Positions 5,260-45,051 of a DNA stretch of 45,248 bases are shown here, one piece after another; position 1 is the stretch's first letter; each line of letters starts with the position of its first letter. Source of the stretch: Adineta steineri (Eukaryota). A model generated the notes under the pieces. It was not told the origin of the DNA and ran no database searches. It saw only the letters and a program-made list of their open reading frames with translations. The stretch is taken from NCBI GenBank assembly GCA_905250115.1, contig CAJNOI010000182.1:108962-154209 (forward strand), written 5' to 3'. The position numbers and the translations under genes are program-made.

Positions 5260-5746
5260 TTAATAGACGAGTTGTTGAGCCATTGGATGATACATTTGGG
5301 GTTGACTTTGAAAACTATTTGTTGGTGTACCAACTGCATTACCAGCAGCCATCATTGGCATACCACTTGGAATCATTCTACCTTGTTGCATCATTGGACG
5401 ATAACCATAAGACATTCCTTGATGTGCTGGATACATATATTGTTGAGGAATATAACTTGATGGTAATGGTGGAACTGATTGAGCGGCCATTTGAGGCATA
5501 GATGATTGCATTTGAACAGGTCGATACATTATTTGCTGCTGTACTGGTTGTTGTTGCATCATACCCATTTGTTGCATTGGCTGCTGTTGCATGACACCCA
5601 TTTGTTGCATTGGTTGTTGTTGCATGACACCCATAGATTGTACTGGTTGCTGCTGCATGACACCCATCGATTGTACTGGTTGTTGTTGCATGACGCCCAT
5701 AGGTTGCATTTGTTGCTGTTGCATTTGTTGTTGTTGCATTTGTTGC

Positions 5747-5780
<34 letters not shown>

Positions 5781-6736
5781 GCATTTGCTGTTGTTGCATC
5801 ATACTCATAGGTTGTACTTGTTGTGATGCTGGCATCATCATCATTGTTGTTTGCGGAACATTGGATGACATTTGTGCCGATGGAGTATATTCAAAACTTG
5901 ATCCTGAAGAAAAACTCGGATCATTATCATTTGTACGATATACTCTTGGTCGTCCAGTCGAACCTGCAATTGAATGGGTTCGATAGGTATGACCACTTGT
6001 CATAAGACCATTTGATATTGAAGGTAATCCATTACATGGATTGCCATATGGTGAACCTGGTTGACTATAACCACTACGAAGTGGACGGTCGACTTTGATA
6101 ACTCTAATGATAGTTAATATTTGTTTGATTAAAATAAAAGAATAAGAAGAAAAATTTACCTTGTTCGAACAATTGGTGGTGGTGCTTCTTCTTGCATTTC
6201 TTTTTGAATTATACGTGGTGGTGGTGTACGTGGTTGTTCAATAACACGTTCAACAATTTCCTGAGCTTGTGGTCGAATAATAACCTAATCAATTAAAAAT
6301 ATAAAACTATTCTATTCTAATCTATTTTATAATATTGAATGCATACCCGTTCCATAACAGGTGCTTCAGGTGTTGGGGCTCGTTCAACGACTCGTTTAAT
6401 AATTGGTGGTGGTGTTGGTGCTCGAACAACATCACGCGGACATCGTTTTTCACGTGTAATCATTCGACCACGATATTCATAGTCATCATCACTACAACTA
6501 TCTGATGAAAATGATCCTGGTGAATATGATCGACTATTAAAAATATTCAAGAATAAATTTTATATGAAAAAAAAATAGACAATTAATTACCGTCGTCGAC
6601 GATGATCATATCCATTTGTTGAGAGACTGGTAGGATATCCAGCAGATAACATTGATGGATCAACACCATAACCGTTAACGCCAGGTGTTGCACCTACAGT
6701 TGATGTTCCATTTGGATAAACATAACGATAGGACAT
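5260..6736 (-). CDS. Gln/Met/Pro-rich low-complexity protein (prion-like), 4 exons, about 433 aa, function unknown.
   Basis: Exons are 6591..6736, 6347..6533, 6160..6284 and 5260..6103. The N-terminal region (MSYRYVYPNGTS..., then RAPTPPPIIKRVVERAPTPEAPVMERVVIRPQAQEIVERVIEQPRTPPPRIIQKEMQEEAPPPIV) is ordinary sequence. It is followed by a long MQQQP / GVMQQQPVQSM repeat array and a poly-Q tract of 20, encoded by (TTG)n on the plus strand at 5700..5790. Confidence 0.6.
5700..5795. repeat. (TTG)n/(CAA)n trinucleotide tract, coding (poly-Gln).
   Basis: The run of ttgttgttg... lies inside exon 4 of the Q-rich gene. Confidence 0.85.
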
Positions 6737-17801: not shown

Positions 17802-19447
17802 TTAAACAGCAAACATTTGTGGGACATATAGATCCGAATCATTTAAAGATGTCGATAGATCATCAAGACCAACAAGACCATTATTGCCACTGCTACCATT
17901 TATAGATGACGATGGATCGGCTGTTGTTCCAGATGAATCACTAGTACCATTTGGTGCATACATAGTCGCATAAAGACGACGCTAAAAATTAAAAAATAAA
18001 AGTTTACTTATTAAAATATTGTTTTGAAAATAAAATAAAAGTTTCTCACTTTTTTTGTTTCATTCTCCATTACTTCATATGGATCTGTATACAAATCACA
18101 ATGTAAATCATTATGATTTGGTAAAAGTCCACCAAGATTAATATTCGAATTTGAATTACCACCACCGGTTGTATATATATGATGTAAATCTAAATGTCCA
18201 TGATGTATATGATGATGAAGTTCACTATGTGGTATCGGTAACGGTTGAGCTAATGAATGATGTTGTTGTTGTTGTTGTTGTTGCAAAAGATGATGATTAA
18301 CATTCATTTGCTGCTGCTGCTGTTGAGAAGGATCTATATAAGGTAATTCGATCAGTCCATTTTTACCTTTATTCGTTGTTACTAATGTACGTCGTACAAT
18401 GGGTCGTAATTTATACAAAGGTGGTTCAGGTGTATTTGCTGTGATACATTTTGGACATAGCCATGTTTCCGGTATATCATCACTGAATACACCTTCATTT
18501 GTAGACGTATCTGGATGAGCACTCTAATATAAAATAACATGATATTTATATAAGAAAAAGAATAATTCAAAATTAAAATATACTTTAAAACATACATGAA
18601 AACATGGTAAATGATGTATTTCCATGCAACGTTCACATTCATATAGGATTTCTTCTGGTTTTAGTTGTGATAATTTTCGTGAACCTTTCTTTTTTGAACA
18701 TATTTGACAGGAAGCTGTTGATGGTAATATTGGCGCAATACATTGTTTTGTTAAACAACATTGTTTCATTTTACCAACACCACCAAATTTTGGCATATCT
18801 TTACAATGTACACATTCAGAACAATCATCACGACAACATGGTTCACATTGCTTACAACTATTTAAAATGTATTTTTTTTTATAATATAGAAATACGAATG
18901 CAAAAAAACAAATAAAATCATACCGAACACGTTTATGTCGATCTTTTGCAGTAGATGTTTTATCTGTACTTGTCGGATAATGTTGTTGTGTGGGTGTTGG
19001 AGGTGATGTTGCTGTACTATATTGATTATTTCCATTTGTATGATGATAATTGATAACATAATGTTGTTGCTGTTGTTGTTGTTGTTGTTGTTGCTGCTGT
19101 GCTGCATAATAGTTAGCTAAATTCGATTGTGTTTGTTGTTGTTGTTGTTGAGATGAATTTGAACCAGCTAATGGTCCACTTAAAAGGATAGTTGCAGATG
19201 GATGTAGTGTAACAACATTTGTAGTTGTCTGTTGTTGCATTGTTAATGTATCATATTGATGATGATGAGAAGGATGATGTGACGATTGTTGTGGAGTATG
19301 AGGATGCTGCTGCTGATGCTGATGATGATGATGGAATGACGAATGATGTTGCTGTTGCATATCGTCACTACCCGTACTGCTCTTACGTTTTATGCCTCGT
19401 AAAGTCTCCGTTATTGTTGTTCGTTCGTTCTGAAACATATGATACAT
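17802..19447 (-). CDS. CXXC-type zinc finger + PHD-like finger protein, Gln/His-rich, 4 exons.
   Basis: Exons are approximately 18924..19447, 18596..18858, 18050..18522 and 17802..17981. Exon 2 encodes CKQCEPCCRDDCSECVHCKDMPKFGGVGKMKQCCLTKQC, a canonical CXXC domain with a KFGG core. That is followed by a C4HC3-like finger, CQICSKKK...LYECERCMEIHHLPC...WLCPKC. The flanking regions are poly-Q/poly-H low complexity encoded by (TTG)n. Confidence 0.72.
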
Positions 19448-30501: not shown

Positions 30502-31399
30502 AGCTTAATGCATTATTTGTTTTGTTTTTCGAGAAAAAACTTTATTCTATTCTATCACAACGAAAGTTCATATTGAATTACCTCGTTGTGATGTTTATGT
30601 ATTATTAATCATTGTTTGTTTGTAAAACATAAAAAAGTACTTAGTTTGTTTGTTGTATGATAATGTATTTAGAAAAATGCATTAACAAAAAAAAAAGCGT
30701 ATGAAATTTAATCTAGACATTCTTTTTTTTCTTATGTCGTATATGTATGTGTCTATTGTATTTGTTCAATCTCGCGGTTTTTTCTTTTCTCACTTTTTTT
30801 TGTCTATAACTTGTGTGTCATTGTCAGTGTGCTTCCTTTTCTTTTCTCGTCGTCTAACATATATTTGAAAATAAAAATATAGACATTTTTGCAACAAATA
30901 AAAAGGAAAATTTTTGATTTGATTTGCTAACTATGAATAATTCTTGCATTCTGATGAAATGTTTTTCAAAATGACGTAAGTAGGGCAAAACAAGAACTTT
31001 TTGTTTATCGATTACAAACTCATTTTGCAATTTTTTCTATATTTCATATTAATTGGTAATTCATACAAAAAAAAATTTCATTTTGAGAATGCAATTTGAT
31101 TCTTTTCCCCCTAATTCATCCGTATATCTCTGTATACTCCTTATCATTATTAGTAAGTAACTTCGATTGTGCAAGAACATAATAGAATGTAGACGAGAGA
31201 GTGAAATATAGATTTTATCGTAAGTCTTGTTTTTTTCTCTTCTGTTCTACTCAACGGGGTAAACTTGCACAATATTTTGAAAATGTTCTTTACCATTTAA
31301 AATGCAATACCATACCCACAGTTTTTTCCGTTTATAAAAGCCCTTCAATTTCTTATTTTTGTCTAGATTATTACTGATATATCTGTAGTAATACACACA

Positions 31400-34300
31400 A
31401 TGAGTAAAACAACTACTGCAAGTGATACTAAAAGTCATTCAAGTCCAGTTTATCGAATTCCACCTTATCATTATATTCATGTATTGGATCAAAATACAAA
31501 TGTTACACGACTTGAAATTGGTCCCAAAACATTCATTAAACAAGATAATGAAACAGTTATTCTTGGACCCGAAAAGATGATCACAGTACCGTATGTAAAA
31601 AAGAAATGCAAATAAATAAATAATTATTTTAAATCTTATTTCAGACCACGTCATTATTGTGTTGTTGAATCACCTGTAATACGCAATGAAGCTGGAGAAG
31701 TAGAATTTGATGAAAATGGTCAAGCTAAACTTATTCATGCTGATTTGGATATTCGTCTTGCACAACCTGATCAAGCACCATTTCCACTTTATCCTGGTGA
31801 AGTTCTTCGTCAAGTATAGGATTGAAAAAATTTTGTTTAAGAAATAATATCAATTATTAAATTCTTTTTTAGCCTGTTACTCCTTTAAAAGTTGTACCTG
31901 CTAATTCAGCATTACGGCTCAAAGCTGTACTTGATTTTGATGATGAAACTGCTAAAGAACAACGTCGTGCTGGTGATGAATGGTTATTTGAAGGTCCAGC
32001 TACTTATATTCCACGTAAAGAAGTTAGTGTTGAGGAACAAATTCGTGCTACAGTTATTGGTTCTAATCAAGCCATTCGACTTTGTGCAAAAAAAGAAATT
32101 ACTGATCGTACTGGTCAACATCGTGTCACTGGTGAAGAATGGTTAGTTAAAAAAACCGGTGCTTATTTACCTCTTGCATATGTAAGTTAAAAAATTACTT
32201 TTATTAATACTAATTAATTATAAACTAAACATTATAGGAAACAGTTGTTTCTGTTGAAAATGCTCATGTATTAACCGATAAAAAAGCTTTACAACTTCGT
32301 GCATTAAAAACATTTACTGATGATTTTGGTAAAGAACGTATGAATGGTGAAGAATGGCTTATAACTTATCTTGATACAGAAACACATATACTTAGTGTTT
32401 ATGAACAATTAGTTGCTGTTGTTGATGTAATAACACTTAATTCTCGTCAATATTGCGTTATAATTGATCCAGTTGAAGATGGAAAACAACAATTAGGAAA
32501 AAAAGTTTGTTATCAAAAATTTTTGTTTTGTATTTTAGAAAAGTTAGAATTTTTTTAGAAACTTATTCTTGGTGAAAAATCATTTTTTCTTCAACCTGGT
32601 GAAAAACTTGAAAATGGTATTCAAGATGTTTTTATATTAGGCGCAGATGAAGGTGTTATACTTAAATGTATAGAAGCATTTGAAGATCAACAAGCTAATG
32701 TAAAACGAAATCCTGGTGATCGATGGATGATTCGCGGTCCAACGTAAGATATGGATTTTTATTTAATTTTGAAAATTAATTTAAAATAAATTTTTAGTGA
32801 ATATATTCCTCCAACACAAGTTGAAGTTGTTACACGTCGAAAAGCACTTCCACTAGATGAAAATGAAGGTATCTATGTTCGTGATATAAAAACGGGTCGT
32901 GTACGGGCTGTTATTGGTGAAACTTATATGTTAACACAAGACGAAGAACTTTGGCAAAAAGAATTACCTAAACAAGTTGAAGATTTATTAACACGTGATG
33001 CGTTAGTTGATCGAAATATTCCAACACGTAATAGAACAACTGATAAAAATCAATCTCAACAAGAAACTACTACTAATTCAAAATCAAATGCAGTTAAACG
33101 TGATAAATCTAAATTAGTTACATATCGTGTTCCACACAATGCATGCGTACAAATTTATGATTATAAAGCTAAAAAAGCACGAATTATTTTTGGTCCTGAA
33201 CTTGTTATGCTTGGTCCAGATGAACAATTTACATTACTTTCATTAAGTGGTTCTGTACCAAAAAAACCTAATCAAATTCAATCACTTTGTTTATTATTGG
33301 GACCCGATTTTTTTACTGATGTTATTGTTATTGAAACAGCTGATCATGCTCGTCTTTCTCTTCAACTTTCATATAATTGGCATTTTCAAATTACTGACAT
33401 CAGTGATGAAAAAGAAGCTGCAAAACTTTTTTCAGTACCAGATTTTATTGGTGATGCAGCTAAAGCTATTGCTTCTCGTATACGTGGTGCTGTTGCTGGA
33501 ACACAATTTGATGATTTTCATAAAAATTCAGCTCAAATCATTCGTGCAGCTGTATTTGGTCTTGATGCTAATCAACAAATTCGACAACATTTTATTTTTC
33601 CACAAAATAATTTAGTTTTAACATCAATTGATATTCAAAGTGTTGAACCTGTTGATCAACGTACACGGGATGCACTTCAAAAAAGTGTTCAATTAGCTAT
33701 TGAAGTAAGAGGAATTATTCTAATACAAATATCTAAAAGTAAAAATAAATAATTTAGATTACAACAAATTCACAAGAAGCAGCTGCTAAACATGAAGCTT
33801 CACGTCGAGAACAAGAAGCTAAAGGTTTATTAGAACGACAACGTATTAGAGATGAAGCTGAAGCTGAAGATGTTCGAAAACAACTTCTTCAATTACAAGC
33901 ATTATCAGCTGCTGTTGAATCAACTGGTCAAGCTAAAGCTGAAGCACAAAGTCGTGCTGAATCACATCGAATTGAAGGTGAAGCAGCTGTTGAACAAGGT
34001 ATGAATAGAAATTATTGATGATAAAATTTTCATATAAAAAAATTATTTTTATTTTAATTAGCTCGTCTTAGAGCAGAAGCTACACGTATTGAAGCTGAAG
34101 CTGAATTATCACGTTTGAAATTAGCACGTGAAGCTGAAATAAAATTTTTACGTGAACAAAATGAATTAGAAATTAATAAAAAAGCTGAAATGTCAAAAAT
34201 TGAAACTGAGAAATTTACATTACAAGTTGAAGCGATTGGAGCATCAACCATTCAAGCAATTGCTACTTCTGGTCCAGATACACAAGTTAAACTTTTACAA

Positions 34301-34462
34301 GCACTTGGTCTTCAATCAATGTTGGTTACTGATGGAAATACACCTATTAATCTAATGGGTTTTGGACAAGGACTTTTAGGTGGTTTAACTGGAAATACAA
34401 ATAAAAAATCTAGAACAGCTACTAATACTTCTAGTAATTATCATATTGAAGAGAATGATTAG
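31400..34462 (+). CDS. MVP: Major vault protein (MVP), 8 exons, 889 aa.
   Basis: Exons are 31400..31590, 31644..31812, 31873..32181, 32238..32504, 32559..32743, 32798..33704, 33758..33998 and 34062..34462. All junctions are GT..AG and in frame. The product is collinear with vertebrate MVP throughout: [209 protein letters not shown].. and the C-terminal coiled-coil cap. Confidence 0.93.
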
Positions 34463-35272
34463 ATACAATAAATTTATATTTCTTGATGAACAAAACCAAA
34501 AAAAATATTGTCTGTTCGTTTATGTTTTAATGTTGATAACTTTGTTCTAAACATTTAGTTTGATTATTTTGTAAAAGTTTACACATGAACAATAAATATG
34601 ACTATTTACCATACAATATAAGTTCTTATGTTATTTGTTTCAATATATAAGCTTAGTTATATCACATTTTACCATCTTGAGGTCATAGACAGAGCAAACC
34701 CACATCCTGGAAGTAAAGAATTTTTGAATCAAATCAAAAAGAAAAGCATATTTTATTTTATAGCCATTTGTTGGATTTCGTTTATGAAATGGAAATTTAC
34801 CATTTAAAAAAACTAGTGCAGTTCTAAGCCATCGTGAAGTTCAATATATTGATGATCATGAATTGAAGCTTGATCAAGTTATTACTGTGTACTAATGCCA
34901 AAAGTACCTTTAAATATTTCTACACGAAGTAAACTTATTGAAAATTACAAAGGAAAAAAAAATAAAGTTATTTTTGATTATTGTTTCTAGCTCATTGACT
35001 TGCAATTGAAGGTAACGACTAACCATTAAAGCGGATCTTACGACAGATTCATTAGATCCTGTAAGATTCTCTAGAACAAAATCAAGTTTTCGATGTATTT
35101 TATTGTGTTTTTATATGAAGTCGCTAACAAAGAAATGACGTAATCTTGATGCATCCAAAAGAAAAGTTCAAATCCACATAAACTTTCTTTGGTACATTTA
35201 AAAAAAATACTCATGAATTATGGATGATAGAACTAGTAGCGTATCCAAGGCCACCGATAAAAACCTCTTGAG

Positions 35273-35330
35273 GGTGTGGGTGTGTGTTGGTGTCTCTTTT
35301 CTTAACTTACACCCATACCCAGCCACACCT
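35273..35330 (-). repeat. GT-rich quasi-palindromic hairpin element, copy 1, inverted relative to copies 2 and 3.
   Basis: gggtgtgggtgtgtgttggtgtctcttttcttaacttacacccatacccagccacacc. Its reverse complement is about 90% identical to 35404..35456. Confidence 0.6.
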
Positions 35331-35403
35331 TCGCCCTCACACGTATCTACACCCTAAATTGATTTTTCGAGACGAACTAAATATATATAGATAAATATAT
35401 TAC

Positions 35404-35456
35404 GGTGTGGGTGTCAGTTAAGAAAAGAGACACCAACTCACACCCACACCCACGTT
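35404..35456 (+). repeat. GT-rich quasi-palindromic hairpin element, copy 2. It marks the start of tandem unit A.
   Basis: ggtgtgggtgtcagttaagaaaagagacaccaactcacacccacaccc. The arms GGTGTGGGTGTC / GACACC..CACCCACACC are mutually complementary. Confidence 0.6.
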
Positions 35457-35640
35457 CCGTTCAACCGAAATACTGCTTCCATGAAATCGTCGGAATACCA
35501 CGGAACCGGCCGTTTCCATGTCGGATTGTTCGACCTGGGCCATCGGTTTGTTCTGTTTTCTTGTTATTATATGAAAGTATATTTGTAAATTTATTCTAGA
35601 TATATATTTTTTCTTGTCCAAAAACGAAATTTGCAGCAAA

Positions 35641-35893
35641 ATGGCTGGATCATTTATTTTAACTGAAGGAAATGAATTAGCAATAGCTTATTTCAATCGA
35701 GCAGAATATGCTATTGCAATTGTTGATGATGCTGGCTTCGTTTACGATAAGAGTATTAAAATATCAGAAAAGAAATGTGCTGATTTGTTTATGTGATGAT
35801 GAATGTGTTATACTTAAAAGTAGAAAGAATGAAAAAATGTTTTTTGTTCTTGGTGATATTACATGTGCATATGTCTGTATTGAAATGGATTAA
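35641..35893 (+). pseudogene. Frameshifted relic of a CDC48/VCP N-terminal-domain gene (unit A).
   Basis: MAGSFILTEGNELAIAYFNRAEYAIAIVDDAGFVYDKSIKISEKKCADLFM* stops prematurely. The continuation, ...CDDECVILKSRKNEKMFFVLGDITCAYV, is homologous to the unit-B sequence LFVDNGEYVIVKSEKCLETICIVRGDNTCL but lies in another frame. Confidence 0.65.
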
Positions 35894-35945
35894 GATGCAC
35901 AAAGTAATTTAGCTGTAAAAAAAGGTGACACTGTATCTATTCAAG

Positions 35946-36003
35946 GGGTGGGTGTGGGTGTAAGTTAAGGAAAGTGACACCAACACACACCCACACCCAA
36001 CCT
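35946..36003 (+). repeat. GT-rich quasi-palindromic hairpin element, copy 3 (start of unit B).
   Basis: ggggtgggtgtgggtgtaagttaaggaaagtgacaccaacacacacccacacccaacc. Confidence 0.6.
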
Positions 36004-36187
36004 CCGTTCAACCGAAAACTGCTTCCATGAAATCGCCGGAATACCACGGAACCAGCTGTTTCCGTGCCGGATTGTTCGACCTGGACCACCGGTTTGTTTT
36101 GTTTTCTTGTTATTATATGAAAGTATATTTATAAATTTATTCTAGATATATACTTTTTCTTATCCAAAAACGAAATTTGGCAGCAAA

Positions 36188-36574
36188 ATGGCTGGATCAT
36201 TTATTTTCACTGAAGAAAATGAATTAGCAGCAGCATATCTCAATCGTGCCCAACATGCCAATGCAATTGTAGACGATGCTGGTTTTTATTATGACAAAAG
36301 CATCAAGTTATCAGACAAGAAACGTGCTGATTTGTTTGTAGATAATGGTGAATATGTTATAGTCAAGAGTGAAAAATGTCTTGAAACAATTTGTATTGTT
36401 CGTGGCGATAACACATGTCTCAATGATCGTATTCGACTAAATACCGTTGTAACAGACAATTTACGTGTATATTCTCGTGATTTTGTTACAATTCATAAGT
36501 GTGGAAATGTTCCAGATGGTAGCCATATATATGTTTTACCGATTGGTTATTCTGAACACGGATCAAGTAGTTGA
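36188..36574 (+). CDS. Stand-alone CDC48/VCP N-domain (double-psi beta-barrel, Nn subdomain) ORF, 128 aa. It may be a remnant first exon of a decayed VCP paralog.
   Basis: MAGSFIFTEENELAAAYLNRAQHANAIVDDAGFYYDKSIKLSDKKRADLFVDNGEYVIVKSEKCLETICIVRGDNTCLNDRIRLNTVVTDNLRVYSRDFVTIHKCGNVPDGSHIYVLPIGYSEH.. aligns with p97 residues about 20-115: [96 protein letters not shown]. It terminates before the Nc subdomain and has no ATPase domain. Confidence 0.6.
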   Translation: MAGSFIFTEENELAAAYLNRAQHANAIVDDAGFYYDKSIKLSDKKRADLFVDNGEYVIVKSEKCLETICIVRGDNTCLNDRIRLNTVVTDNLRVYSRDFVTIHKCGNVPDGSHIYVLPIGYSEHGSSS

Positions 36575-36690: not shown

Positions 36691-36826
36691 CCCAGGTCGA
36701 TGAATACGCGATTCGTATACGGTCGTAATACTGAGACAGGTAATACGCTAAAGTACGACGGAATACGGCACGACATTCGTATACTGTTCGTATACGGTCG
36801 TTTACGACAGACAATGTTCGACCTGG
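36691..36826. mobile_element. 136-bp MITE with perfect palindromic termini CCCAGGTCGA...TCGACCTGGG and subterminal repeats.
   Basis: The first 11 nt, cccaggtcgat, equal the reverse complement of the last 11 nt, (a)tcgacctggg/ttcgacctggg. The interior has reiterated cgtatacggtcgt and gtaatacg motifs. There is no ORF. Confidence 0.6.
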
Positions 36827-36835
36827 GACTATTAT

Positions 36836-37001
36836 AGCTACAACAAATCGACAACGTTTAATTGATTTGCCGCTTTATCTTCGTGCTCAATTTATATACG
36901 AAGTTCTTATTAACACACCTGATGCTGATGAGCGTTTTGATATTCTTGGTAAATACACAGAAAATATGCAATTGGATGATGATGATCGAATACTGCCACC
37001 G
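36836..37001 (+). pseudogene. Isolated fragment of a VCP/CDC48 D1 ATPase domain (the region just after the arginine fingers), sitting between inverted MITE copies.
   Basis: The in-frame translation ..LRAQFIYEVLINTPDADERFDILGKYTENMQLDDDD.. aligns with p97 [39 protein letters not shown]. It is only about 55 codons long and is bounded by a stop codon and by MITE sequence. Confidence 0.55.
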
Positions 37002-37005
37002 TAAC

Positions 37006-37127
37006 CGATCGTTTATCTGCGTGAACGAGAGTATACGATACGGAGAAATACGACCGTAATACTAAGACACGTAATACGTGAAAATACGACCGTATACGAA
37101 TTGAGTATTCATCGACCGGGGTATGTT
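37006..37127. mobile_element. Partial second copy of the 36691..36826 MITE, in inverted orientation.
   Basis: The reverse complement of 37090..37127, ccccggtcgatgaatactcaattcgtatacggtcgta, matches 36691..36727, cccaggtcgatgaatacgcgattcgtatacggtcgta, at 33 of 37 positions. It shares the same subterminal motifs. Confidence 0.55.
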
Positions 37128-42654: not shown

Positions 42655-44216
42655 ATGAAAATGGCTGCAAGTAATAATGATGGTAAATATGAAACTGTTC
42701 CTGTAGCTGATAAACATGCCGGTGATGAATTACAAGTTGAAGATCAGAACGACGAGGACCATAATACTGTTGTTCTACCAGCTCAATTATTGCGAGATAT
42801 ATTCGATTCATTTAAGAAACTTTTCATCATCATTCATCATCAAGTACATGATAAATCTCTTGTATGCGTTGGTAAAACGCAGAACGTTAGATTAGCTCTT
42901 CCTGGTCCAAAAATGAAAATGAGTCGTGTAATAAGGAAAAATTTGAATATATTATTAAATGATGTTGTGACATTTGACGCATGCCAAAATATTATAGAAG
43001 GTGAACGTCTTGAAGTCGCACCCATTTATGATACCATTAATGGATTAACAGGAAGTCTATTAAATATTTTTTTAATACCATATTTTCGTATTAAAAATCC
43101 TGGTCGACCGGTGAATCAAGGTGAATTTTTTATTGTTCGTGCAGCTATGCGTGCTGTAGAATTTCAAGTTATTAAAACTGTACCAGAACCGTATTGTATT
43201 GTTGGACCCAAAACAAAAATAGTTTGTAAAGATGTTCCAGTTAAACGTGAAGAAGTGAAATCATCGTTGAATGAAGTTGGTTATGATAGTATTGGTGCTG
43301 TAAAAAAACAACTGGCATCAATTAAAGAAATGGCTGAATTTACATTACGACATCAACCATTAATTAAACTAAGTGGTGCTACACTGGCACAACGTATTCT
43401 TCTCTATGGACCACCTGGCACAGGTATAACAAAAAGAAATCTTATTTTATTAAGAAAAAAAATGTTTTATATTTTAGGGAAAACATTGGTCGCACGTGCC
43501 GTGGCAAACGAAACAGGTGCATCATTCTTTTTAATTAGTGGACAAGAAATGATGTCTAAATTAGCTGGTGATGAAGAAGTAACATTAACTAAAGTTTTTG
43601 AAGAAGCTGTAAAAGTAAATACATAATAGTTTTTTTTAAATAATTAAAATTAAGAAATTATTCGGTATTATTTTATTTATAGAAATCTTCAGCCATCATT
43701 TTCATTGATGAGCTCGATGCTATCGTACGAAAACGTCAAAATACACATGGTGAAGTTGAATGTTGCATAGTATCACAATTATTAACAATAATGGAGAATC
43801 TTAAACAACATTCACATGTTCTTTTTATGGCTGCCACAAATCAACCAAATGACATTGATTCAAAACGATTTGGTTTTAATCTCGAAGTTGATTTGAACAT
43901 AGCCGATGATGATGTTAATGGTCGTTTAGAGATCCTTCTTATACATACAAAAAATTGGAATCTACATCATGATGTTAATTTAGAACAGATTGCTAAAGAA
44001 ACACCCGGTTATGTTGGTGGAAACTTAGTCTCATTATGTTCAGAAGCTTATTTACAACAACTTCGAGAAAAAAAGGATATTTTTGTTCCAGGTCAAGATA
44101 CATATCCTGTTGAAAAACTCGATTTATTATGTATTACTGAAGAAAATTTTCGAGTTGCATTGGAGCTATCAAAAAAAACAGTTCTACGCAAATCTGTTTC
44201 AAAGAAAAAAGACTGA
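42655..44216 (+). CDS. VCP/p97/CDC48-like AAA+ ATPase paralog, truncated to N domain + D1 domain (no D2), 3 exons, 477 aa.
   Basis: Exons are 42655..43423, 43478..43608 and 43683..44216. Splicing of intron 1 (54 nt, gtataac..ttttag) restores the Walker A P-loop GPPGTG|[14 protein letters not shown]. The product aligns with p97 from the N domain through D1: ..[241 protein letters not shown]... It stops where the D1-D2 linker would begin. Confidence 0.85.
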
Positions 44217-44403
44217 TCCTAAGTTGTCAGTAAGCATTTAAGAACTGTATTCTTTTTATATTCTGTTTTCATCATTTGCTGTTGTTCACTTTTCTTCTTT
44301 TTTTATTTCCTTTAACATCAAATAAAATGTAAAAAAAAAAGACAGAATGATGAAAATAACATGTCTTCATATATTTTTTTTTTTCGATTGGGCGAGCTTG
44401 AGG

Positions 44404-44460
44404 TAGTGGGTGTGGATGGAATAGAATACACACACGAACACTCTCGTCCACGCCCACCCT
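44404..44460. repeat. GT-rich quasi-palindromic hairpin element, copy 4, located 3' of the VCP-like gene.
   Basis: gtagtgggtgtggatggaatagaatacacacacgaacactctcgtccacgcccaccc. It has the same GTGGGTGTGG...CCACRCCCACCC architecture as the 35273/35404/35946 copies. Confidence 0.5.
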
Positions 44461-45051
44461 TCATTATCAGTATGAAATTCGTCATCAACATTAACATCAA
44501 ATATTAGTTCATTACTTGGTTCTTCTGGTGAACCAACAAATGTTGCTTCCAATTAATCATCTAATGCTTATTCACCATATTCAAATCATCCAACACAATC
44601 ACCAGTTATGCAAATCAATTATCAATGTAAAAAACAAACAAAATAAAAATTATAAGAAATATTTCTTTAAAAATCCTTTTTGTTTTTATATAGCATAAAG
44701 TTCTTATATTCTAACACCAGTTGTATCAAGTGATAGTTTTTCTTCATCATCGAATAATAATACTTCATCTGACCAATCTTCATTTGAAAATAATGTTTAA
44801 TTACCAACAATAAACATTACACCTGTGACACCAAGTGCACAATATGCACCAGTGCCAACTTCACTTCGTTAGTTTTTTCTTCATCTTTTCTTGATAAATA
44901 TAAGAATTAAATGAATAGACTTTGACTCAATAACAAATAATGATTGACATACAGAAGATTTGTATGCTAGAATCAAAGTTTCAAATAAAGATGAAACAAT
45001 TTATGTTGAAATGATTGGTGTTATTCAAAGTATATCTGTAGATTTTCTATT

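Follow-up and report, generated by a model that had tools for sequence, protein, structure and literature searches.

The four short GT-rich hairpins of the window (the whole stretch of 45,248 nucleotides analysed here, which is bdelloid rotifer DNA with Adineta steineri as the closest named match, at 91% identity to a protein) have arms made of two to three units of the bdelloid telomere repeat, the G strand first and then the C strand. They belong to a family with conserved non-telomeric motifs; its members are scattered through bdelloid genomes beside all kinds of genes, and the hairpins are therefore not a CDC48-specific signal. The reading preferred here, to which a little less than an even chance is given, is that they are head-to-head interstitial telomeric repeats (ITS), scars of RNA-templated addition of repeats at broken ends that were subsequently joined; the break-healing origin and the templating by RNA are what we infer.

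A relaxed two-arm scan of the window recovers exactly the four copies that the first-pass annotation of this DNA had located, three clear ones and one diverged, and none elsewhere in the 45 kb. The sequence GGTGTGGGTG with at most one mismatch occurs at 12 sites in the window versus 0.22 expected (maximum 1 in 100 shuffles), and nine of these sites fall in the four hairpins. The features of the locus are the following:

35267 to 35324, plus strand: copy 1, with the CTTGAG flank at 35267-35272, the G arm GGTGTGGGTGTGTG at 35273-35286, the loop TTGGTGTCTCTTTTCTTAACTTA at 35287-35309 and a C arm starting with CACCCATACCC
35310 to 35354, plus strand: degenerate C-strand telomeric tract prolonging the C arm of copy 1, CACCCA TACCCA GCCACA CCTTCG CCCTCA CACGTA TCTACA CCC
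35355 to 35403, no strand: AT-rich spacer from copy 1 to copy 2, which together with the C tract makes the 84-nt interval of the large foldback
35404 to 35453, plus strand: copy 2, opening tandem unit 1, with the G arm GGTGTGGGTGT, the loop CAGTTAAGAAAAGAGACACCAACT and the C arm CACACCCACACCCAC
35454 to 35539, plus strand: GC-rich module, first copy, ending in GGATTGTTCGACCTGGG, its minus strand starting with CCCAGGTCGAACAATCC; 89% identity to the second module copy
35540 to 35945, plus strand: rest of tandem unit 1, made up of AT-rich upstream DNA, a pseudo-ATG (35642) and the CDC48_N exon as a decayed copy with frameshifts and stops, ending in ...CTATTCAAG at copy 3
35946 to 36002, plus strand: copy 3, opening tandem unit 2 at the duplication junction, with the G arm GGGTGGGTGTGGGTGT, the loop AAGTTAAGGAAAGTGACACCAAC and the C arm ACACACCCACACCCAACC
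36003 to 36085, plus strand: GC-rich module, second copy, ending in GGATTGTTCGACCTGGA
36188 to 36574, plus strand: first-exon ORF of the CDC48_N-like gene A, given as context only and lying outside the hairpin family (Pfam CDC48_N, E 2e-4, below the curated cut-off; 91% identity to an Adineta steineri protein)
36691 to 36825, no strand: 135-bp element with the terminal inverted repeats (TIR) CCCAGGTCGATGAAT ... AATGTTCGACCTGGG, of the same family as the GC-rich modules
44397 to 44459, plus strand: copy 4, diverged and independent, with the CTTGAG flank at 44397-44402, the G arm GTAGTGGGTGTGGATGG, an unrelated loop of 27 nt and the C arm TCCACGCCCACCC

The arms were predicted to pair, and each copy does fold as a hairpin: as DNA, copies 1 to 4 have dG values of -11.1, -13.0, -18.8 and -10.5 kcal/mol, with z of -2.3, -3.9, -3.5 and -2.2, respectively (copy 4 as RNA, z -3.9). 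Copies 1 and 2 with the spacer form a single 180-bp foldback with a 48-bp stem (dG -52.9, z = -11.75), in keeping with the larger inverted repeat proposed for them, while the interval given as 73 bp is 84 nt by the boundaries of the tool. Such hairpin potential is an automatic consequence of inverted repeats, so no function need be assumed. The suggestion that the arms could adopt G-quadruplex or i-motif structures is not borne out, since no copy has a canonical motif of four G3+ runs with loops up to 12 nt; intramolecular G-quadruplexes (loops of 1-7 or 1-12 nt) are absent from both strands of 35200-36050 and 44380-44470, and the single match obtained with loops of up to 20 nt falls in the degenerate tract next to copy 1. 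No Rfam family reaches its gathering threshold in the whole window, the best miRNA-type matches in 35100-36250 scoring 32-40 bits against thresholds of 88-140, and no tRNA is found by ARAGORN in or beside the hairpins.

The bdelloid telomere repeat is (TGTGGG)n (PMC7943196; PMC13564844; PMC8494291), and the arms match it or its complement with 0-1 mismatch per 11-mer. They are inverted repeats of 11-25 nt, some of them prolonged by CTTGAG/CTCAAG, and in many the first unit is the variant TGAGGG (the reverse complement of TCACCC). In places one arm is prolonged as a long degenerate telomeric tract, as at 35310-35354 of the window and in the metagenomic loci L014, L023, L065, L105 and L107. The G-then-C orientation prevails over C-then-G by 4 to 0 in the window and by 38 to 2 in bdelloid-type sequence, the latter sample having been ascertained for G-then-C. 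The arms consist of the species' own telomeric repeat, a criterion of ITS. The telomeric nature of the arms is absent from the first-pass annotation. The location of the hairpins is internal and not at a chromosome terminus, as ordinary genes flank them on both sides in the window (the major vault protein, MVP, gene upstream; CDC48-like and F-box genes downstream) and one metagenomic copy, L042, lies in an intron of an ABC-transporter gene, between two ABC_membrane exons.

Two non-telomeric pieces are shared in the family, the loop motif TCTCTTTAC and the outer flank ATCTTGAG|GG. With at most two mismatches, TCTCTTTAC is present in 18 of 36 loops versus 3.8 expected (maximum 9 in 500 shuffles), a motif defined from the same data. 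CTTGAGGG, which flanks copy 1 and is also present in the metagenomic family, occurs 19 times versus 4.7 expected; in 12 of these 19 cases it is joined directly to telomeric repeats, with AT preceding it in 8 of the 12. Outside the conserved 8 nt the flanks are unrelated. The loops, 10-35 nt long, occur in both orientations and differ in sequence outside a core of 6-9 nt. Within the window, the notion of a four-member family applies fully to copies 1 to 3, which are alike (the loop of copy 1 being inverted relative to those of copies 2 and 3), while copy 4 has only the arms and the CTTGAG flank (reading CTTGAGG) in common with them, its loop not being homologous.

Hairpins of this kind had been thought to occur only next to VCP-related sequences. 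Metagenomes scanned with an arms-only two-arm pattern gave 102 matching stretches, mostly from three related samples, of which about 33 are AT-rich, carry telomeric extensions and are of bdelloid type, an assignment checked for one contig of the ~33, L105, whose guanylate-kinase ORF is 84-86% identical to those of Rotaria and Adineta (next best, insects at 47%). These ~33 contigs share the architecture and have diverse neighbours with no CDC48 homology. Genes near the family loci include LicD, ABC transporter, FG-GAP, F-box, guanylate kinase, cupin, hAT and B-box, and a tblastn search with the CDC48-like ORFs of the window finds no homology near ~100 metagenomic loci. Three groups of matches were excluded as unrelated: those of high GC, which are perfect bacterial palindromes, contigs of the (TG)n type and a GGTGTGGTGT-type family. 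The loop core of the window, AGTTAAGRAAAGNGACACCAAC, used as a metagenome pattern gives 0 matches, so the loop of copies 1 to 3 is private to the window locus.

The distribution of the hairpins is sporadic and clustered; neither ~87 kb from other bdelloid loci nor the remaining 36 kb of the window holds any. When 38 sequences were compared all against all by BLAST after masking of telomeric runs, only L070 and L105 shared hairpin-adjacent sequence, and near-identical copies at unrelated loci are not seen. Empty sites were sought at two places. At the orthologous loci of the MVP gene (L001-L005, L108, L110) synteny reaches only to the end of that gene, past which gene order diverges (other bdelloid contigs have an inverted MVP paralog and a triose-phosphate-transporter-family, TPT, gene), and hence there is no empty site for copy 1. 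For the minimal copy of L105, compared with the guanylate-kinase ortholog L111, homology ends 300 bp short of the hairpin. By eye, no target-site duplication is seen beside the inspected copies, a 2-bp AT duplication being indistinguishable from the palindrome. A full-text literature search for the motif strings returned no bdelloid paper.

A tandem duplication with units of 546 bp has copies 2 and 3 at the starts of its units; copy 1 (35272-35324) is an inverted copy, 92-94% complementary to copies 2 (35404-35451) and 3 (35946-35998). As local duplicates of one ancestor, copies 1 to 3 are not independent, and only two independent hairpin events are therefore found near CDC48-like sequence. 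The tandem units are 91-94% identical up to ~45 nt into the coding sequence and 67% identical over the remainder. The junction of the duplication sits exactly at the G arm of copy 3: unit 1 reads ...ATTCAAG|GGGTGGGTGTGGG, versus ...ATTCATAAG|TGTGGAAATG in the intact paralog, so that by paralog comparison the exon is AAG|TGTGG at the junction point, in register with the repeat. This supports a role for the telomere-like arm at the junction of the local duplication, and gives partial support to the idea of a recombination hotspot that drove the duplication. Both simple insertion (L042) and rearrangement (copy 3) occur in the family.

Copies 2 and 3 abut a module of ~88 nt, whose terminus TTCGACCTGGG is also found in the 135-bp TIR element 700 bp away; the proposal that the hairpin is a MITE terminus is supported in this part. 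The module-plus-hairpin arrangement recurs in L029 and L106, with a similar distance from the hairpin to the CCCAGGTCGA module end in the three independent loci, and hairpin and CCCAGGTCGA module look like a composite unit. Module plus hairpin was considered as a structured RNA gene (e.g. telomerase RNA), and the idea was dropped because of the poor alignment of the window, L029 and L106 and the lack of convincing covariation. A tRNA origin of the GC-rich module was likewise rejected, as ARAGORN found nothing and no A box is visible by eye.

Under the preferred reading, a DNA break would expose 3' ends to which a telomerase-like reverse transcriptase, telomerase or an Athena-type enzyme, would add TGTGGG repeats, and the two healed ends would then be joined head to head, a junction that would account for the G-then-C order. 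The non-telomeric pieces common to the family would stem from the parts of the template RNA that immediately border its repeat-coding stretch, ATCTTGAG as the flank that precedes the repeats and GT-CT(T)CTCTT(TAC) as the loop motif that follows; a loop motif contributed by only one of the two ends would explain its occurrence in both orientations. In the window, upstream of a CDC48-like gene, one such scar would have formed on half a copy of a small inverted-repeat element. It was then copied locally: the inverted copy is copy 1, and copies 2 and 3 come from the 546-bp tandem duplication, whose junction would have used TGTGG as microhomology shared by the exon and the G arm. Copy 4 would be a separate, older event. 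There are precedents for such events: mammalian ITS are scars of double-strand-break repair, with break-site nucleotides likewise in register with the repeat and some flanks retrotranscribed from telomerase RNA (PMC7215372), and in A. vaga telomeric repeats and Athena fragments lie at deletion breakpoints (PMC13564844). That the conserved parts, ATCTTGAG before and (GT)CTTCTCTT(TAC) after the repeats, are reverse-transcribed template flanks of one hypothetical RNA is in itself unlikely. This RNA would be either the telomerase RNA of bdelloids or a dedicated 3' fragment of Athena type, and would have the form ...GUAAAGAGAAGAC-(ACCCAC)n-CCUCAAGAU..., and some bdelloid RNA (telomerase RNA or an Athena 3' end) would then contain ...AAGAGAAGAC-(ACCCAC)n-CCTCAAGAT....

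The scar reading needs an extra assumption for the module-hairpin composite, namely that breaks recurrently hit a palindromic element close to its centre, and the short arms of 2-3 repeats on both sides across many loci, together with the cross-species loop motif, would also fit a self-copying sequence family. The main rival, possible if somewhat unlikely, is a mobile element, either a very small palindrome in itself or a non-autonomous element of which the hairpin is the terminal module, perhaps foldback or MITE-like. Its unit, ATCTTGAG-(GGTGTG)n-loop-(CACACC)n-CTCAAGAT, would spread in either orientation, by itself or joined to the ~90-nt CCCAGGTCGA module. The sharply bounded outer 8-mer and the loop motif, both conserved, the loop's occurrence in both orientations, the composite found twice in the window and again in L029 and L106, the kinship of the module with the 135-bp element, and copies in introns and intergenic DNA of unrelated genes all argue for such an element, as do the terminal inverted repeats, a MITE criterion, and the 180-bp foldback of copies 1 and 2 with its 48-bp arms. 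But no inspected copy has a visible direct target-site duplication, the telomeric-repeat arms vary from 11 to >100 nt, the loops are very different in length and sequence outside the core, near-identical copies occur only as local duplicates, and the left flank of copy 3 is a host exon in register with the repeat. Nor is there a transposase or reverse transcriptase nearby among the 10 largest ORFs of the window and 20 ORFs of family loci, a search that small or decayed fragments could escape. The hairpins might also be 3'-end remnants of Athena/Terminon elements (endonuclease-deficient Penelope-like), which attach to telomeric G overhangs by short reverse-complement telomeric stretches; the C arm would be such a stretch and the rest an extremely truncated element. 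A Penelope-like reverse-transcriptase ORF would then be expected upstream in the same orientation, and the search of those ORFs yields none. Known Athena/Terminon 3' ends carry (ACACCC)n or (TCACCC)n, and short telomeric stretches cap copies (PMC6431247; PMC8557442); the TGAGGG variant opens many arms, and the conserved loop part ends at AAGAGA right after a GUA triplet, which could be a 5' end made by ribozyme cleavage. Such an origin is nevertheless improbable, as the defining hammerhead immediately upstream of the C stretch is not found with Rfam (none in 35100-36250 of the window at E up to 10 or in 20 family loci at E up to 0.1), and standard attachment leaves the element flanked by repeats that all point the same way, unlike the inverted arms of the hairpins.

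Readings that assign the hairpins a function at nearby genes fare worse. A sequence kept by selection (a telomere-repeat-binding site, an insulator/terminator or a precursor of telomeric small RNA) might be seen in copy 3, 186 bp upstream of the gene A ATG at 36188, in the several hairpins lying just downstream of ORFs (L019, L028, L073 and copy 4) and in the upstream region with the hairpin, 89-94% identical between the tandem units against 67% for the decayed coding part. Stems of 17-25 bp moreover resemble small-RNA precursors, with Rfam miRNA matches at the sub-threshold level only. Selection of this kind is quite improbable, given that there is no positional rule (copies lie upstream, downstream and in introns), that every Rfam miRNA score is far below its gathering cut-off and that gene conversion explains the high upstream identity equally well; complementarity of the arms is uninformative on selection, because it is automatic for inverted telomeric repeats. 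As regards a cis-regulatory or recombination element specific to the CDC48/VCP family, every window copy does sit at most a few hundred bp from CDC48-like coding sequence (186 bp for copy 3; 181 bp for copy 4, past the stop codon at 44216 that ends the CDC48-like gene B), and this proximity is real. It stems from two independent events only, the N domains of genes A and B are 22% identical, and the motif is widespread with no link to a gene family, the very finding that the first-pass annotation had set against its cis-regulatory proposal. A link to the CDC48 family is refuted, and an element specific to it is hardly credible.

Bdelloid rotifers survive massive DNA breakage, and the protection and rejoining of their broken ends are under active study, with transient neotelomeres that leave only scars described in a 2026 paper on A. 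vaga (PMC13564844). If the origin in break repair is true, the hairpins would provide a ready set of markers for old break sites, rearrangement junctions and subtelomere-like DNA moved inside chromosomes. If the templating is true as well, they would be a genome-wide fossil record of telomeres newly formed on both ends of a break and then rejoined, and the shared motifs, pointing at the template RNA, could serve as a sequence probe for rotifer telomerase RNA. In annotation, the hairpins should be masked as telomere-derived repeats and not treated as gene-family regulatory elements, miRNA precursors or G4 sites.

Telomere-like promoter elements are known as the Rap1 sites of yeast and the telo-boxes of plants, of which the paired inverted architecture is not a known feature. 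Like them, copy 3 places a telomere-like motif upstream of a gene, while the hairpins in general have no consistent position or gene class. MITEs and foldback elements are, like the hairpins, small, palindromic and dispersed, and two of the hairpin copies abut a module of a TIR element; the hairpins differ from MITEs in showing no target-site duplications, in their variable telomeric-repeat arms and in the low identity between loci. With the 3' termini of Athena/Terminon elements they share the host organisms, short (ACACCC)n/(TCACCC)n stretches, a link to telomeric repeats and captured host genes and, presumably, an origin templated by a reverse transcriptase. Their inverted arms and the absence of a hammerhead or reverse transcriptase nearby set them outside that group. 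Mammalian short ITS, including the 'TERC-ITS' described by Nergadze, Santagostino and Giulotto (PMC7215372), likewise consist of the species' own telomere repeat at internal sites, with in-register junction nucleotides and insertion sometimes accompanied by duplications or inversions; at some loci they contain nucleotides copied from telomerase RNA, analogous to the ATCTTGAG flank and the loop motif of the hairpins (PMC7215372). Mammalian short ITS are tracts of a single orientation, whereas the hairpins are two facing tracts (G then C) around a loop, made of the TGTGGG repeat, with flank and loop motifs recurring across dozens of loci in several species. The facing arrangement itself has a counterpart in the fusion-type ITS at human 2q13, where G-strand repeats run into C-strand repeats, the signature of a head-to-head junction of two chromosome ends; 2q13 records one large ancestral fusion of chromosomes, while the hairpins occupy many loci, at least one of them intronic (L042), with arms of 11-20 nt and a conserved non-telomeric central loop.

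The arms of the hairpins are built from the bdelloid rotifer telomere repeat, (TGTGGG)n (PMC7943196; PMC13564844; PMC8494291). In every copy the left arm comprises two to three units in G-strand orientation, and the right arm likewise in C-strand orientation; in copy 1 the C arm extends into a degenerate 45-nt C-strand tract (35310–35354). Since the arms are the same repeat in the two orientations, their complementarity is automatic, and it is no evidence of selection for structure. The window is AT-rich (ca. 29% G+C) and eukaryotic, with genes for a 14-3-3 protein, a CXXC zinc-finger protein, the major vault protein (MVP), an F-box protein, and CDC48-like proteins; the sole database relative of the CDC48_N-like ORF at 36188–36574 is an Adineta steineri protein (91% identity). 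Two ORFs, 18524–19447 (-) and 5260–6003 (-), are glutamine/histidine-rich with long CAA/CAG runs, one of them having a CXXC zinc finger, and a lone telomere-like 11-mer at 18987, unrelated to the hairpins, lies in the coding sequence of the CXXC/Q-H-rich ORF.

The four hairpins reported in the first-pass annotation are real and lie where it put them, with limits here set at 35267–35324 for copy 1 (inverted), 35404–35453 for copy 2, 35946–36002 for copy 3, and 44397–44459 for copy 4, which is diverged; its statement that the 45 kb holds no others agrees with a relaxed two-arm scan, which returned these four copies only. With at most one mismatch, GGTGTGGGTG is found at 12 sites in the window against 0.22 expected, nine of them within the hairpins. 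The expected folding is borne out by prediction: each copy forms a stem-loop, with DNA ΔG values of -11.1, -13.0, -18.8, and -10.5 kcal/mol for copies 1 to 4 (z -2.3 to -3.9), and the RNA predictions resemble the DNA ones. The suggestion of G-quadruplexes is not supported, no copy having a canonical G4 motif. A repeat search of the window showed copy 1 (35272–35324) to be 94% complementary to copy 2 (35404–35451) and 92% to copy 3 (35946–35998). Copies 1 and 2 do face each other as claimed, the spacer being 84 nt and not 73, and together with it they make a single foldback with a 48-bp stem (predicted ΔG -52.9, z -11.75). The loop of copy 1 is that of copy 2, inverted, while copy 4 has the arms in common with the other copies and a different loop.

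Directly 3' of copies 2 and 3 lies a GC-rich module of 83–86 nt ending in TTCGACCTGG(G/A), beyond which AT-rich DNA leads to an ATG and CDC48_N coding sequence; copy 1 has the flank CTCTTGAG and no module. The two blocks are a tandem duplication (unit 1, 35404–35945; unit 2, 35946 to ca. 36500), 89–94% identical from the hairpin through the 5' noncoding sequence and the initial ca. 45 nt of coding sequence and 67% identical beyond. This pattern resembles a tract of gene conversion, or else constraint on upstream sequence, and suggests that the duplication is old and its 5' part was homogenised later. Stops and a frameshift mark unit 1 as a pseudogene. At the junction it reads ...CTATTCAAG|GGGTGGGTGTGGG, the same point in the intact unit 2 exon reading ...CAATTCATAAG|TGTGGAAATG, and the copy 3 junction is in register with the repeat. 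As copies 1–3 come from one ancestor and copy 4 is separate, the window holds two independent hairpin events. The GC-rich module was rejected as a structured RNA, comparison of three species having shown no conserved structure; it is a member of a small family with CCCAGGTCGA termini, which recurs around an exon remnant further downstream:

36691–36825, complete CCCAGGTCGA-family element, 135 bp, with inverted ends CCCAGGTCGATGAAT ... AATGTTCGACCTGGG and internal TTCGTATACGGTCGT repeats
36826–37005, exon remnant, 180 bp, TIIATTNRQRLIDLP...DADERFDILGKYTENMQL, bracketed by the two CCCAGGTCGA-family elements
ca. 37003–37123, partial CCCAGGTCGA-family element, inverted copy

The exon remnant has no Pfam detection and aligns to residues 343–393 of p97/CDC48/AFG2 D1 (E 3e-8 to 4e-5); gene A, which begins with the ORF at 36188–36574, therefore appears from its sequence to be a decayed CDC48-like gene whose Walker motifs have been lost. 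Its N domain is only 22% identical to that of gene B, the CDC48-like gene at 42655–44216. The 135-bp element stops 10 nt short of a ttatag| acceptor-like site and the partial one starts exactly at a GTAACC donor-like site, the pair recalling transposon-derived ('introner'-like) introns.

Outside the window, the loop core had no metagenome matches, and a pattern of the arms only, GGTGTGGGTGT-N(10-40)-ACACCCACACC with exact 11-nt arms, gave 102 stretches, which sort into three groups: perfect palindromes in high-GC bacterial contigs, taken here as fortuitous; a few types of repeat that are unrelated; and about 33 AT-rich contigs (27–46% G+C), mostly from a few dominant samples (Ga0116226, Ga0116228, Ga0116230, and Ga0163163), in which TGTGGG/CCCACA repeats prolong the arms, in many cases as far as the end of the contig. 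Only one metagenomic contig was confirmed as bdelloid, L105, whose guanylate-kinase ORF is 84–86% identical to Rotaria and Adineta (next, insects, 47%). The family has a loop motif, (GT)CT(T)CTCTT(TAC), immediately after ...GGGTGT, which 18 of 36 loops carry at up to two mismatches; 3.8 would be expected, and 500 shuffles gave 9 at most, the motif being defined on the same data. Also shared is an outer flank, (AT)CTTGAG|GG, directly or as the complement, and window copies 1 and 4 have it too. CTTGAGGG occurs 19 times in 367 kb against 4.7 expected, and 12 of the 19 sites lead into telomeric repeats, eight of these with AT before; the loop and flank statistics alike are post hoc. Beyond 8 nt the flanks are unrelated to one another. 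Measured against the asymmetric flanks, the loop motif points either way, in a ratio of roughly 6 to 4 by manual count, a long telomeric tract often stands in place of one hairpin side, and the C-then-G arrangement is rare (2 versus 38 G-then-C, in an ascertainment-biased sample). At 34672–34707 of the window, ca. 280 bp past the end of MVP homology and 560 bp before copy 1, ATCTTGAGGT-CATAGACAGAGCAA-ACCCACATCC consists of the exact 8-nt family flank and, after it, a hexamer resembling the C strand; this could be what is left of a further, decayed hairpin, the 8-mer alone being expected ca. 1.6 times by chance.

Several loci have features of their own. L009, L018, L051, L060, and L095 (43–46% G+C; samples Ga0105051-55, Ga0209284/491, and Ga0335398) carry long, near-perfect, nearly loopless head-to-head TGTGGG arrays (GGGTGTCCCACACC), either telomere–telomere fusions of another organism or assembly foldbacks. 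The L097 hairpin (288–329) has the family loop motif (GTCTCTCTAC) and its palindrome reaches 13 nt into a differing flank (ATGTTCTGGTAGG / CCTACCAGAACAT), which would fit snap-back copying of flanking DNA. In L045 a short-period tandem array (125–688; units 84–91% identical, self-match offsets of ca. 25 to 300 bp) immediately adjoins a hairpin with a degenerate G tract. Related 'tRNA-Ser(GGA)' calls of 73–74 nt, unusually short for tRNA-Ser, lie 330–540 bp from a hairpin each in L013 (399–471, -) and L020 (640–713, +); no tRNA was found in ca. 87 kb of control bdelloid loci and no tRNA gene in the window. A 128-nt sequence that starts like a tRNA (GCCGNTATGNCTGAGTGGTTA...GTGTTCGAAC) and resembles a tRNA-derived SINE is present in both L070 (2602–2729) and L105 (1352–1479, -), at 77% identity; in L105 its 3' end continues directly into the minimal unit ATCTTGAG-GGTGTG-AAGAGA.

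The first-pass annotation had tied the hairpins to CDC48/VCP-related sequences. The CDC48-like and F-box ORFs of the window have no tblastn match at any locus, and the metagenomic hairpins neighbour diverse genes, for LicD, ABC-transporter membrane domains (L042, with the hairpin within an intron), FG-GAP repeats, F-box, guanylate kinase, cupin, a hAT dimerisation domain, LRR, and B-box proteins, so that a CDC48-specific element is hardly credible. Hairpins are absent from other bdelloid loci totalling ca. 87 kb (L001, L004, L108, L109, and L110) and from the remaining 36 kb of the window, which makes the family sporadic and clustered. The closest MVP relative, L110, is 83% identical in nucleotides over 31032–34395, homology being lost at the MVP end. 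Downstream of MVP the bdelloid contigs L110, L004, and L108 have an inverted MVP paralog and a triose-phosphate-transporter-family (TPT) gene, and the window has the hairpin cluster with decayed CDC48-like and F-box genes; gene order thus changes immediately past MVP.

The best-supported reading, a plausible if tentative one, is that the hairpins are head-to-head interstitial telomeric repeats left by break healing. It is proposed because of the G-then-C order, a mammalian precedent, and findings at Adineta vaga breakpoints. Joining two chromosome-type ends puts a G strand ahead of a C strand in just this way. In mammals, it is established that repair of double-strand breaks can leave short telomeric tracts at internal sites, with junction nucleotides in register with the repeat and, at some loci, extra nucleotides reverse-transcribed from telomerase RNA (PMC7215372), and telomeric repeats and Athena fragments have been observed at A. 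vaga deletion breakpoints (PMC13564844). A telomerase-like reverse transcriptase would extend two ends, either those of one break or unrelated ones; on a hypothetical source RNA, synthesis would sometimes start 3' of the template, giving ATCTTGAG, and sometimes pass its 5' boundary, giving CTTCTCTT, and the extended ends would finally be joined. Extension and joining would explain why the order is fixed, why arm lengths vary, why the 8-nt flank is sharp, and why the loop motif has its phase and its two orientations; they would also explain the in-register junction of copy 3 and the occurrence of simple insertions (the L042 intron) alongside rearrangement junctions (copy 3). Recurrent fusion to half an CCCAGGTCGA element could, on an added assumption, reflect breakage near the centre of this palindromic element. 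No empty site was recovered for the hairpin loci.

The main rival, a small mobile palindrome, either by itself or joined to the CCCAGGTCGA module, would account for the sharp boundary, the common loop core, and the composite with the module in three loci, but no target-site duplications were seen in the flanks inspected, different loci lack similar copies, and the telomeric arms vary; we consider it rather unlikely. A functional role, in protein binding or as small RNA, seems very improbable. Rfam at threshold gave no family in the window, and its E-value mode, applied to the window region and 20 family loci, gave sub-threshold miRNA-precursor matches only, typical of any hairpin.

No description of a dispersed inverted mini-tract family with a shared loop and flank was found in the literature, coverage of which was partial, so that an earlier description is possible. 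Interstitial and fusion-type telomeric repeats are known, as are short telomeric stretches in bdelloid subtelomeres. Among the ORFs examined in the window and family loci no reverse transcriptase was found, and Rfam in E-value mode found no hammerhead ribozyme in the window region or the 20 family loci. An Athena-derived origin without the hammerhead is improbable: Athena/Terminon 3' ends have a hammerhead motif followed at once by (ACACCC)n or (TCACCC)n (PMC6431247; PMC8557442), and the absence of the hammerhead removes the feature that defines them.
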